Of a stretch of DNA of 64,000 nucleotides, positions 2,406-62,915 are shown piece by piece; position 1 is the stretch's first letter, and each line of letters opens with the position of its first letter. A program made the translations under genes and the position numbers. The notes beneath the pieces were generated by a model, which ran no database searches, was not told the DNA's origin, and saw nothing but the letters and a program-made list of their open reading frames with translations. Source of the DNA: an uncultured Gammaproteobacteria bacterium (GTDB lineage: Bacteria; Patescibacteriota; Patescibacteriia; Magasanikbacterales; GWA2-37-8); assembly GCA_964355175.1 (NCBI GenBank), contig CAYHBZ010000002.1, positions 332,537 through 396,536 of the forward strand, read 5' to 3'.

Positions 2406-3413
2406 ATGTTTATAAAAAAAATCGGAATTGATCTGGGAACAACTAATGTGCTGGTGTATGTGCCAAAAAAAGGGATCATTATCAATGAGCCTAGTGTGGT
2501 GGCAATCTCCAAAGCCGATGGTAAAGTATTGGCCGTAGGTCTGGAAGCCAAGGATATGATCGGTCGCACACCAGATACCATTATTGCCCAGCGTCCGCTC
2601 AAGGATGGCGTGATTGCCAATTATCACATTACGGAAGCAATGTTGCGTTATTTTATTAATAAAGCTTTGGGCGGGGCCAGATTATTTCGTCCGGAAGTAA
2701 TGGTGGCAGTGCCAGCCGGAATTACATCTACCGAACGTCGCGCCGTAATTGATGCTTCGATTGCTGCCGGTGCGCGCGCTGCTTATATTATCAAAGAACC
2801 AATAGTGGCCGCGATTGGCGCTGATATCCCAATTGGAGCGGCTTCCGGTCATATGATTATTGATATTGGTGGTGGTACGGCTGAGATTGCAGTGATTTCT
2901 TTGGGTGGTATTGTCTCTAGTGTCAGCGCGCGTGTGGGCGGTAATAAATTTGATCGCGCTATCATTGAATATATTCGTCATAAATATAATATGGCGGTGG
3001 GTGAGCGCAGCGCCGAAGAAATAAAAATTACGGTTGGCTCCGCTATGTTTATGGATAAACCGCTGACCATGGAAATAAAAGGCCGTGATATGATTGCCGG
3101 TTTGCCGCGCATACTTACCGTGTCTTCTGATGATGTGGTAGAGGCTCTGCAACACGAGCTGGAAGTGCTTATAAGTGCTATCAAACAAGTATTATACGAA
3201 ACACCGCCGGAATTATCCGCTGATGTGATGGACAAAGGTATCATTATGTCGGGCGGTTCGTCGATGTTGCGCAATTTAGATCAGCTGGTGGCGCAAGCTA
3301 CCGGTGTGCCGACTTACTTGGCCGAAGAGCCGCTGTTGTGTGTGGCCAAAGGTACCGGTATCGCGCTGGAAAATCTGGATAGTTATAAGCGCAGTATTCT
3401 GGCTACCAAGTAA
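2406..3413 (+). CDS. mreB: rod-shape determining actin-like protein MreB
   Basis: The N-terminal GIDLGTTN phosphate-1 motif and full-length collinearity with MreB/actin-fold ATPases. Confidence 0.9.
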   Translation: MFIKKIGIDLGTTNVLVYVPKKGIIINEPSVVAISKADGKVLAVGLEAKDMIGRTPDTIIAQRPLKDGVIANYHITEAMLRYFINKALGGARLFRPEVMVAVPAGITSTERRAVIDASIAAGARAAYIIKEPIVAAIGADIPIGAASGHMIIDIGGGTAEIAVISLGGIVSSVSARVGGNKFDRAIIEYIRHKYNMAVGERSAEEIKITVGSAMFMDKPLTMEIKGRDMIAGLPRILTVSSDDVVEALQHELEVLISAIKQVLYETPPELSADVMDKGIIMSGGSSMLRNLDQLVAQATGVPTYLAEEPLLCVAKGTGIALENLDSYKRSILATK

Positions 3414-14982: not shown

Positions 14983-15055
14983 GCCGTTGTAGCTCAGTTG
15001 GTAGAGCATTTCCATGGTAAGGAAAAGGTCTCGGGTTCAAATCCCGACAACGGCT
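14983..15055 (+). tRNA. tRNA-Thr(GGU)
   Basis: Cloverleaf folded by hand: acceptor GCCGUUG/CAACGGC, D-arm GCUCAGUUGGUAGAGC, anticodon loop AUGGUAA, T-arm UCGGGUUCAAAUCCCGA. Confidence 0.8.
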
Positions 15056-15094
15056 CAAGTGAGCCTCTACTTAGATTCTCACATACCAAATTAT

Positions 15095-15170
15095 GCCGGC
15101 TTAGCTCAGTTGGTAGAGCAACGGTTTTGTAAACCGTAGGTCTAGGGTTCGAATCCCTAAGCCGGCTCCA
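15095..15170 (+). tRNA. tRNA-Thr(UGU), CCA encoded
   Basis: Acceptor GCCGGCU/AGCCGGC, anticodon stem ACGGU/ACCGU with loop UUUGUAA, T-arm UAGGGUUCGAAUCCCUA, 3' UCCA. Confidence 0.8.
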
Positions 15171-15194: not shown

Positions 15195-15203
15195 TGGTAT
15201 AAT
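15195..15203 (+). promoter_or_regulatory. extended -10 promoter element (TGGTATAAT)
   Basis: TGnTATAAT sits 5 nt upstream of the 15208 ORF. No clear -35 element. Confidence 0.3.
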
Positions 15204-15207
15204 GTAG

Positions 15208-15837
15208 GTGATACACACCAGTTGCTTTATGCCACAAAAAACTATTACAACAGAACAAGAAAAGTTAGTAAAGAATTTGTATATTCATGGAAAGATGGGG
15301 AAAGAAATTTCTTCCATCTCCGGCTTGTCTTTGAAACAAATATATAGTTCTCTCCGCCGTCAGAAAGTTCCAAGAAAAAGTTTGGCTGAACAAAATAAAA
15401 TTTTGTTTGAGAAAAAATTACCATCATTTAGGTTTAAAGAAAATTTAAATTTAAAAGACAGAGAACTCTTGATAGCGGCGATTATGTTGTATTATGGAGA
15501 AGGAGCCAAAACAGGAGTTACGGTAGATTTTATAAATTCAGATGTGCTGGTGGTAAAATTATTCTTAAAATTTTTGAGAAAAATTTGTCGAGTAAATGAA
15601 GATAAAATAAGATGTTACCTCTATTGTTTTGAAGATCAAAATATAAATGAATTAATAAATTATTGGTCGTCTCAATTAAAAGTTGGAAGGACACAGTTTA
15701 CCAAGCCTTATGTCCGTCCAAATGTTAATCGAGGCAATAGATCAATGCCTCATGGAGTGATACATGTTCGTTACGGAGATAAAAAGTTATTAGAGAAAAT
15801 TTTATATCTTTGCAAAGAACTAGTTAGCTCTTTATAA
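15208..15837 (+). CDS. hypothetical protein with an N-terminal HTH and a possible LAGLIDADG-like motif
   Basis: The N-terminus (..LVKNLYIHGKMGKEISSISGLSLKQIYSSLRR..) looks like a homeodomain-type HTH. LLIAAIMLYYGEGAKTG weakly resembles a single LAGLIDADG motif. The gene sits between two tRNA genes, directly upstream of the intron-containing tRNA-Tyr. The true start may be at M8 (MPQK...). Confidence 0.4.
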   Translation: MIHTSCFMPQKTITTEQEKLVKNLYIHGKMGKEISSISGLSLKQIYSSLRRQKVPRKSLAEQNKILFEKKLPSFRFKENLNLKDRELLIAAIMLYYGEGAKTGVTVDFINSDVLVVKLFLKFLRKICRVNEDKIRCYLYCFEDQNINELINYWSSQLKVGRTQFTKPYVRPNVNRGNRSMPHGVIHVRYGDKKLLEKILYLCKELVSSL

Positions 15838-15843
15838 AAAATT

Positions 15844-16118
15844 GGGCAGATACCAAAGTGGCTAACTGGGGCAGACTGTGAACAATTGCAGCTCTTAGAG
15901 GTAACTCTAGGATGAACTCTCTGGGATAACGGTGAAAGCTAATGGGGGTGCTAATACCGTGGGAACTTCGCAACGTGCGGAGAGCGCCGTAGAGACTAGA
16001 TACCAGAGTATCCCGATTCAGTTGGGATAAAGATATAGTCCATGCCGTAAGGAAACTTATGGATAAGTGAAATCTGCTGGCTCCGCCTTCGTAGGTTCGA
16101 ATCCTACTCTGCCCACCA
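15844..16118 (+). tRNA. tRNA-Tyr(GUA) split by a group I intron in the anticodon loop (exons 15844-15879 and 16070-16118, CCA encoded)
   Basis: The joined exons read GGGCAGA-UA-CCAA..UGGG-G-CAGAC-U-GUA-AA-UCUGC-UGGCUCCGCCUUC-GUAGGUUCGAAUCCUAC-UCUGCCC-A-CCA. This is a type II tRNA with a long variable arm. The anticodon stem-loop GCAGACUGUAAAUCUGC is identical to bacterial tRNA-Tyr. Confidence 0.75.
15880..16069 (+). other. group I self-splicing intron (IC3-like, ~190 nt) within tRNA-Tyr
   Basis: The conserved S element AAGAUAUAGUCC matches the group I consensus exactly at 16029-16041. The R-like element GUAGAGACUAGAUA at 15989-16002 supplies the P7 pairing GACUA/UAGUC. The 5' exon ends in U, which can pair with the internal guide GCAG near the intron start. 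The intron ends in G just before the 3' exon. Confidence 0.7.
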
Positions 16119-38265: not shown

Positions 38266-38447
38266 AAATAGAACATTCCTGCTCGGGAAGAACTATTATT
38301 TGAAGACCGGACTTGTTCTCGACTTAGTCGAGACTTTACCGTTGCGGCACAGTGGAGGAATTGACCTCACTTCCACAAATAATAGGTTAAATTGTATGTA
38401 TAAACTATCAGGGTTCTAAGGCACTGTCAAAGCGGGTGTGGATAAGT

Positions 38448-62465: not shown

Positions 62466-62519
62466 GTCGAAGTTTTGGCATTGCTTAGTCCGTCGGCGTT
62501 AAAGCTTCGGCGAACAAAG

Positions 62520-62915
62520 TGGAGGTGGCGAGAGTTGAACTCGCGTCCAAATAATTTTGAATATACCATCTACATGCTTAGGCTGCTTATTTTTTTAAGT
62601 TGATGGATAATAAACAGACGAAATTCCAGCAACCGAGCAAGATTTACTTTCGGCTATAGTCATCTTACAGTAACTAAAGCCTACTTTCCGTGAGTGACAC
62701 CGCTTTGCGTTACGGAACCTTACGCAGGCGATGGGAAGCGGTTATTAAGCCGCAACCGGAGCAAAGCTGAAGCTAGGGCTAAAAGCGCTAGCAAGAGCAG
62801 TCTTTACTTTTGATAACAAGTTTGCACTTATTATGTGTTTCGAGGATTTACGAGGTTCAAAACGCCCTCGGCATGCGAGTGTACTCAGAAACTTTTGTCA
62901 AAGCCCAGCACCCCC
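62520..62915 (-). ncRNA. ssrA: tmRNA (ssrA), ~396 nt
   Basis: Reverse complement starts GGGGGUGCUGGGCUUUG and ends ..GGACGCGAGUUCAACUCUCGCCACCUCCA (tRNA-like T-arm plus a 7-bp acceptor pairing with the 5' end). Internal tag reading frame GCA AAC UUG ... GUU GCG GCU UAA UAA, ending ..APVAA then a double stop. Adjacent to smpB. Confidence 0.7.

Follow-up and report, generated by a model that had tools for sequence, protein, structure and literature searches.

We found that the tRNA-Tyr(GUA) gene in the window (i.e., the whole 64-kb stretch of DNA that was analysed) is split by a 190-nt group I intron. The intron occupies positions 15880-16069 on the forward strand, carries no ORF inside it, and is inserted between anticodon nucleotides 35 and 36. 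It is very likely a functional self-splicing intron, which would be removed by a two-step guanosine-initiated reaction that restores the GUA anticodon. The Tyr intron is a further example of a kind published in 2025-26 and not a new phenomenon: group I introns at position 35/36 of Patescibacteria tRNAs were described by Nakagawa, Amikura, Omae, and Suzuki (mSystems 2026, PMC13011429), with a preprint in July 2025 (bioRxiv 10.1101/2025.07.03.662931). With at least 16 species-level lineages carrying it, the Tyr-hosted form is no one-off. The value of the intron is mainly practical and confirmatory, and the LAGLIDADG-like gene that flanks the tRNA is of somewhat higher interest.

Exon 1 (15844-15879, forward strand, as are all parts of this gene given below) is 36 nt long and ends with GCAGACUGU (also written GGGGCAGACUGU). 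It contains the 5' strand of the acceptor stem, the D-arm, the 5' strand of the anticodon stem, and loop nucleotides 32-35 (CUGU). Exon 2 (16070-16118) is 49 nt long, starts with AAAUCUGC (also written AAAUCUGCUG) and ends with ACCA; it contains loop nucleotides 36-38 (AAA), the 3' strand of the anticodon stem, the long variable arm, the T-arm, the 3' strand of the acceptor stem, A73, and the encoded CCA. A first-pass annotation of this DNA had proposed that the two segments join into a tRNA-Tyr(GUA), and ARAGORN indeed recognised the exons joined in silico as an 85-nt type II tRNA-Tyr(gta) with a long variable arm, a G1-C72 pair, A73, and the anticodon GUA. The insert is preceded by U15879, and its last base is G16069. 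Only one junction reconstitutes the 7-nt loop CUGUAAA with anticodon GUA, which places the intron between anticodon nucleotides 35 and 36.

ARAGORN with default settings reported five tRNAs and one tmRNA in the 64-kb window and missed the split tRNA-Tyr gene. In intron mode the program did report a tRNA interrupted by a 190-nt intron, with the junction shifted and the isotype given as Ser(tga). Default tRNA finders thus miss the gene or misname its isotype (Ser). A genome in which the split gene is missed would appear to be without tRNA-Tyr, which would distort completeness estimates for CPR genomes. The same annotation problem has been pointed out for the Asn and Asp introns (Nakagawa et al., 2026; PMC13011429).

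The elements of a group I intron could be assigned along the insert (forward strand throughout; compensatory changes refer to the comparison of relatives described below). P1 (15876-15891) is formed by exon CUGU plus intron GA (15876-15881) and UUGCAG (15886-15891), closed by the loop ACAA. Within it the guide GCAG (15888-15891) pairs with the exon CUGU, and the U15879.G15888 wobble marks the 5' splice site. P2 (15893-15900 with 15905-15912) is an 8-bp helix, UCUUAGAG/CUCUAGGA, with the GNRA loop GUAA and compensatory changes in all eight pairs. P3 pairs CUCUGG (15919-15924) with CCAGAG (16003-16008); five of its six pairs show compensatory changes and 100% of the cells are paired. P4 (15929-15934 with 15955-15960) is complementary and invariant. 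P5 (15937-15939 with 15950-15952) has a 10-nt closing loop, UAAUGGGGGU, and one covarying pair. The P6/P6a region (15961-15988) consists of GG...CC plus the hairpin CUUCGCA-ACG-UGCGGAG (15966-15982), with compensatory changes in 5/7 pairs.

J6/7 and the 5' strand of P7 lie at 15989-16002, with the R element GUAGAGACUAGAUA (GTAGAGACTAGATA) and GACUA (15994-15998) as the P7 5' strand. The P8 hairpin follows the 3' strand of P3 (16009-16029, UAUCCCGAU-UCA-GUUGGGAUA; compensatory changes in four of the five scored pairs). J8/7 and the 3' strand of P7 are at 16030-16041, with the S element AAGAUAUAGUCC (AAGATATAGTCC) and UAGUC (16036-16040) as the P7 3' strand. GACUA and UAGUC are complementary, so that the R and S elements form P7 as the first-pass annotation had proposed. 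The exon-terminal U opposite a guide GCAG and the terminal G, which it had also reported, were found as U15879.G15888 and G16069. P9 (16045-16062, CCGUAAG-GAAA-CUUAUGG) has a GAAA loop and compensatory changes in 6/7 pairs, and the 3' tail after it runs to 16069 as AUAAGU followed by the terminal G16069 (omega G). By eye, neither the P7-P3' nor the P3'-P8 interval contains an additional helix. The window has a single match to the combined R...S pattern, and 100 dinucleotide shuffles gave none.

The first-pass annotation had suggested a search with an Rfam covariance model. Rfam RF00028 matched positions 15850-16062 with 50.6 bits, only just above the gathering threshold of 50 (E = 6.5e-10 over the window). 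The RF00028 alignment misplaces P1 onto the D-arm of the tRNA; the P1 given here was set by hand and then backed by the comparison among relatives. None of the other Rfam families matched the insert at the gathering thresholds. Folded on its own, the intron has a minimum free energy (MFE) structure (-56.9 kcal/mol, z = -2.6) that contains every helix listed above, P2, P6/P6a, and P8 among them, except P1 and P7. The absence of P7 is due to the inability of thermodynamic folding to draw the P3/P7 pseudoknot. A pairing of exon GACUG with UAGUC was proposed by both RNAalifold and the MFE fold; we treated it as an artefact, since neither program draws this pseudoknot.

From general knowledge of group I introns and from the published in vitro splicing of Asn and Asp introns at 35/36, we infer the splicing chemistry as follows. 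In the precursor, exon CUGU would pair with the guide GCAG to form P1, in which the U15879.G15888 pair would mark the 5' splice site. The P3-P9 core including the P3/P7 pseudoknot would fold around a guanosine-binding site in P7, and an external guanosine would attack after U15879. Next, G16069 would move into this guanosine-binding site, and the 3'-OH released at U35 would attack after G16069. This second step would join GU to A and restore the anticodon loop CUGUAAA.

We scanned the GTDB species representatives for relatives with a Tyr-specific pattern (J8/7-P7 core, then a terminal G, then the 3' half of tRNA-Tyr). The scan gave 16 loci, each a species-representative genome with the same split gene, mostly metagenome-assembled genomes (MAGs) of Patescibacteria/CPR (Magasanik-, Peri-, Morani-, and Parcubacteria). 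The remaining loci are in TPA assemblies labelled 'uncultured Gammaproteobacteria', a label that we consider doubtful. A matching 5' half-gene was present 185-239 nt upstream in 16/16 loci, and in silico splicing yielded tRNA-Tyr(gta) at 15 of them; the 16th is interrupted by the locus end. The R element is outside the scan pattern and was nevertheless found in all 16 matches. The S element (the P7 3' strand) is invariant, but it had been fixed by the search patterns.

A host-agnostic scan with the intron core only gave at least 120 metagenome loci and 41 'viral' contigs. Junctions were then called by a single rule (exon end YUGU, guide GCAG, a 5-bp anticodon stem, and confirmation by ARAGORN, with one solution per locus). 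Among the matches listed, 81 loci from both scans were uniquely resolved, and in 81/81 the intron is inserted at 35/36. The hosts among these listed matches are tRNA-Asp(GUC) at 31 loci, tRNA-Asn(GUU) at 24, and tRNA-Tyr(GUA) at 26. The Tyr-specific scan or the window itself accounts for 17/26 of the Tyr loci, and the Tyr-hosted intron is also on at least ~9 metagenome contigs among the matches listed. Also among the matches listed, 39 metagenome and 25 viral loci with the core pattern gave no resolved host under relaxed rules. No tRNA-His(GUG) host was resolved among the matches listed, and the idea that all four GUN tRNAs serve as hosts is therefore unsupported.

The base before the 3' exon is G in every member, as set by the junction rule. 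The CUGU/GCAG pairing is present in 79/79 family members among the matches listed. In the same 79 listed members, the first nucleotide of the intron forms a pair (AU, GC, CG, GU, or UG) with the base on the 5' side of GCAG. The window intron belongs to one family that occupies one position in tRNA-Tyr, tRNA-Asn, and tRNA-Asp (three of the four tRNAs with GUN anticodons). As the three host tRNAs have the 5' loop half CUGU, a single guide GCAG fits all of them, which is a simple explanation of the host range.

The alignment comprised 26 Tyr-hosted introns, among them the published one; three loci were left out (L071, whose 3' junction was wrong, L011, which is truncated at the locus end, and L004, which contains a run of N). 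RNAalifold, unaided, found P2, P3, P4, P5, P5a, P6, P6a, P8, and P9, with compensatory changes in 32/49 pairs. When P1 and the P7 pseudoknot were added to give the full topology, 97.0% of the cells were paired vs. 34-47% with partners slid by 1-3 columns. Double changes were present in 32/52 pairs; the shuffle mean was 21.5, and a count of 32 was reached by 0/500 shuffles. The covariation score was 0.438 vs. 0.194 in shuffles. The covarying helices are P3, P5, P5a, P6a, P8, and P9. The exon part of P1, P4, and P7 are invariant in the 26 introns, so covariation neither supports nor contradicts these helices. The covariation across 26 homologous introns bears out the central claim of the first-pass annotation, a group I intron in the anticodon loop of tRNA-Tyr. 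The anatomy of the intron, its homology to the relatives, and the conservation of its helices are matters of direct comparison.

The P5a hairpin is present in most relatives and, among the aligned introns, is absent only in the window and in L013, L073, and L092. P5a of the relatives looks similar to a tetraloop-receptor region. Its absence from the window clade could make unaided activity in vitro weaker. The window intron is 92% identical to L092, 92% to L073, and 89% to L013 (a Candidatus Magasanikbacteria MAG), and a second assembly of the same locus was found (L178). The window flanks are also ~77-83% identical in nucleotide sequence to those of L013, and every named homologue of the neighbouring ORF is from CPR; both place the host in the Patescibacteria/CPR. 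The first-pass annotation had put the intron among the smallest group I introns. At 190 nt it is small, but the published minimum is 184 nt (the range for bacterial tRNA introns is 184-894 nt; PMC13011429), and relatives of 179, 180, 184, and 185 nt are shorter than the window intron.

A cassette separate from the intron (15195-15837, forward strand) lies between tRNA-Thr(UGU) (15095-15170) and tRNA-Tyr. It starts with an extended -10-like sequence, TGGTATAAT (15195-15203, forward strand), followed by a 202-aa ORF (15229-15837, forward strand) that encodes an HTH at the N-terminus and a LAGLIDADG-like domain. The ORF is 202 aa long when counted from the ATG at 15229 and 209 aa from a GTG codon. 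A database copy (P0001) on a 953,736-bp NCBI contig is 100% identical over 202 aa. Compared with L013, in which the Thr-Tyr spacer is 29 nt, the cassette is a precise insertion of ~643 nt between homologous flanks that ends 6 nt before tRNA-Tyr. At 13 further intron-bearing Tyr loci the corresponding position is taken by a homologue of the ORF (38-80% identity). The spacer is 'empty' (18-44 nt) at four loci, and in other intron-bearing Tyr loci no ORF was detected in spacers of 149-858 nt.

Distant members of the ORF family end 1-15 nt before tRNA-Tyr, both beside intron-bearing genes (L179, L181, and L187) and beside intron-less ones (L182, L184, L186, and L189). The presence of the ORF follows tRNA-Tyr, not the intron. 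In addition, the ORF copy in L001 is split, and L013 has a paralogue that stops 1-2 nt short of tRNA-Trp. The precise presence/absence polymorphism at one site, the split copy, and the paralogue beside tRNA-Trp are indirect evidence for mobility and for site-specific cleavage of ORF-less alleles. In sequence searches the N-terminal HTH was the sole recognised domain. The Pfam LAGLIDADG models did not match the window protein, and LAGLIDADG_1 gave one weak match among 32 family members (E 0.006). The AlphaFold model of the ORF protein is confident (pLDDT 92.9); Foldseek gave no significant match with it. The predicted fold is nonetheless LAGLIDADG-like, and the motif helix ends in a conserved acidic residue; the acidic residue of the conserved MLYYGEGAK motif is invariant in the ORF family.

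Some LAGLIDADG proteins are group I maturases, and a gene for a LAGLIDADG-fold protein adjoins tRNA-Tyr in the window. The intron could thus be real and still depend on a protein in the cell, for example on the upstream LAGLIDADG-like protein as a maturase, because the clade of the window, L013, L073, and L092 has lost P5a. L013 and L092, however, have neither P5a nor the ORF, the ORF is also found beside intron-less tRNA-Tyr genes, and related 35/36 introns self-splice without protein (PMC13011429). We regard such a dependence as improbable. An obligatory maturase role of the ORF in particular is disfavoured by the intron-bearing Tyr loci without it, which make up about half of the total.

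Even less probable is a dead tRNA-Tyr with a decaying intron and a working tRNA-Tyr elsewhere in the genome. The borderline RF00028 score speaks for it. Against it, the core is nearly invariant and the helices are kept by compensatory changes across 26 lineages. The tRNA-Tyr exons are intact in all lineages compared, and those of the window are identical in sequence to those of L013. ARAGORN found no second tRNA-Tyr within the 64-kb window; this inspection covers 64 kb of the genome, which leaves some room for a gene elsewhere. In the available part of Table S2 of Nakagawa et al., however, there is a single tRNA-Tyr per Patescibacteria genome, and intron-bearing and intron-less copies of one anticodon are seldom found together (PMC13011429). 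It is plausible that splicing is essential to the cell. The insert might also be another element altogether, such as an archaeal-type protein-spliced tRNA intron, a group II intron, an insertion sequence, or an assembly artefact, for which one can cite only that default tRNA finders miss the gene. This reading is effectively refuted: the 35/36 position, U-1, the terminal G, and the P1-P9 fold are the signature of a group I intron, the insert has no match to other Rfam families at gathering thresholds, and the arrangement recurs in independent assemblies, including L178 for the same locus. A functional group I intron remains the preferred reading.

The neighbouring ORF, which may be new, is a candidate gene for a free-standing homing endonuclease of the LAGLIDADG type, or perhaps for a WhiA-like DNA binder, that would target tRNA 5' flanks. 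One scenario, which we advance tentatively and consider rather doubtful, is that a free-standing endonuclease homes to the 5' flanks of CPR tRNA genes, co-converts the 36-nt exon together with the intron, and in this way spreads ORF-less 35/36 introns. Hitch-hiking of the intron by co-conversion is possible. Endonuclease genes were found inside only 12 of 333 introns, and limited horizontal transfer was proposed for introns without internal endonuclease genes (PMC13011429). In that work endonuclease genes were sought only inside introns, and tRNA-adjacent neighbours are unmentioned. If true, the scenario would provide a mobility route for introns judged to be limited in horizontal transfer (PMC13011429). 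If the ORF proved to encode an active endonuclease, it would add a mobility mechanism and define a new LAGLIDADG-like subfamily directed at the flanks of tRNA genes.

A known system to compare with the ORF is collaborative homing, in which a free-standing endonuclease is encoded near an ORF-less intron, e.g., F-CphI and the cyanophage psbA intron (PMC3984707). As in that system, the window ORF is polymorphic in presence/absence at a fixed site. It differs in being found also beside intron-less tRNA-Tyr, and its predicted fold is LAGLIDADG-like. The copies beside intron-less tRNA-Tyr make the intron insertion site an unlikely target, and strict collaborative homing onto that site is disfavoured.

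Compared with the classical IC3 introns of tRNA-Leu(UAA) (34/35, Nostoc/Anabaena), tRNA-fMet (33/34), tRNA-Ile2 (Azoarcus), and tRNA-Arg (36/37), the window intron is likewise small, ORF-less, and located in the anticodon loop. As in those introns, too, the helices come in the same order, P2 and P9 are capped by GNRA loops, and the P7 core is of the AGAGACU...AGUC type; identity to the Nostoc tRNA-Leu intron is 57%. In contrast to the classical introns, it is inserted in tRNA-Tyr at 35/36, and not at 33/34, 34/35, or 36/37. With subgroup models, 25 of the 28 introns at 35/36 were assigned to IA, not IC (PMC13011429). The first-pass annotation had listed tRNA-Leu, tRNA-fMet, tRNA-Ile, and tRNA-Arg as the known hosts. 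This list has been superseded by Williams (2020; bioRxiv 10.1101/2020.01.27.920355), in which the tRNA host/site classes increase from 4 to 21.

Among 95 complete genomes, introns at 35/36 were reported in 15 tRNA-Asn, 3 tRNA-Asp, and 1 tRNA-Tyr(GUA) (PMC13011429). Splicing was assayed for one Asn and one Asp intron only: the tRNA-Asn of GCA_016700035.1 and the tRNA-Asp of GCA_001029755.1 self-spliced precisely in vitro, and a G-to-C mutation of the terminal base stopped exon ligation in the tested introns (PMC13011429). The window intron shares with these validated introns the 35/36 position, the exon end CUGU, the guide GCAG, and the overall helix order. It is 62% identical to the Asp and 58% to the Asn intron. 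The host tRNAs differ, as do J3/4-P4 and the P7 flanks (GGUGAAUUGCGGG / GUUCAGAGACUAGAG in the Asn intron). Identity to another Asn intron, that of GCA_030583765.1, is 69%.

A tRNA-Tyr host, considered unusual in the first-pass annotation, is no longer so, as a Tyr(GUA) intron at 35/36 has already been reported from GCA_016699995.1 (Doudnabacteria; Nakagawa et al., 2026; PMC13011429). The window intron is 76% identical to it over 192 nt. It differs in that its host lineage is near Magasanikbacteria and its clade is shorter and without P5a. The two introns have in common the 35/36 site, U-1, the terminal G, the guide GCAG, a CPR host, and the lack of an ORF, and they share the core strings GGGAUAACGGUG, AAUACCGUGGGAAC, CCGUAGAGACUAGAUACC, and GAAGAUAUAGUCC.

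The Tyr-hosted group I introns differed in the P5a region. A P5a hairpin was absent from four close relatives (n = 4), the introns of the window (15937-15952), of the Candidatus Magasanikbacteria MAG L013 and of the metagenome loci L073 and L092, in which the loop UAAUGGGGGU takes its place. In the other 22 Tyr-hosted introns the hairpin was present and flanked by GCUAAG...UAUGC, which to us presumably resembles a tetraloop-receptor motif. RNAalifold and MFE folding did not form P7 and instead paired exon GACUGUG with UAUAGUC (window 16034-16040), because the 5' exon end, AGACUGU (window 15874-15880), resembles the P7 5' strand, AGACUAG. The exon-UAUAGUC helix could be a competing structure adopted before splicing, or a mere artefact of pseudoknot-blind folding.

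The 202-aa LAGLIDADG-like ORF upstream of the window tRNA-Tyr has a 221-aa paralogue in L013 (4595-5257, minus strand; 2744-3406 on the reverse complement), with the motif LLYWCEGEKS...IRFANSD. A tRNA-Trp gene begins 1-2 nt past the end of this paralogue, which suggests that the ORF family inserts immediately 5' of various tRNA genes. Weaker paralogues were located 64-518 nt 5' of intron-bearing tRNA-Asn or tRNA-Asp at loci L022, L126, L123, L105, and L099. The CPR-type Thr-(ORF)-Tyr-intron locus was found in the TPA MAGs L001, L002, L004, L010, L011, L012, L015, and L016. The "uncultured Gammaproteobacteria" label on these eight MAGs appears doubtful.

Other RNA features of the window, both on the minus strand, are an AdoCbl (B12) riboswitch match (38268-38401), barely over the Rfam threshold (51.9 vs. 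50 bits), and a one-piece tmRNA of standard form (62517-62915; Rfam 147.9 bits). The tag peptide given by ARAGORN, ANLLSKVKTALASAFSPSFSFAPVAA, is rather long; the tmRNA is otherwise ordinary-looking.

The R/S intron core was also present in "viral" IMG/VR contigs (L137, L147, L151, L152, L157, L161, L162, L171, L173, and L175). ARAGORN assigned anticodon UCA to host tRNAs there, with insertion at ∼34/35; this host would be a UGA suppressor or Sec-like tRNA. The core was present in tRNA-Leu(UAA) as well. The junctions are resolved only in part.

Directly 3' of tRNA-Tyr, ARAGORN detected split tRNAs with 179-188-nt inserts at three loci: Arg(gcg) in L179 (3413-3673) and Thr(ggt) in L181 (3494-3746) and L184 (3239-3499). 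The three inserts gave no match to the Rfam group I model. The window tRNA-Thr(GGU) (14983-15056) carries no intron. "Divergent" introns at 36/37 of tRNA-Thr(GGU) have been reported (Nakagawa et al., PMC13011429), and the L179, L181, and L184 inserts probably correspond to them.
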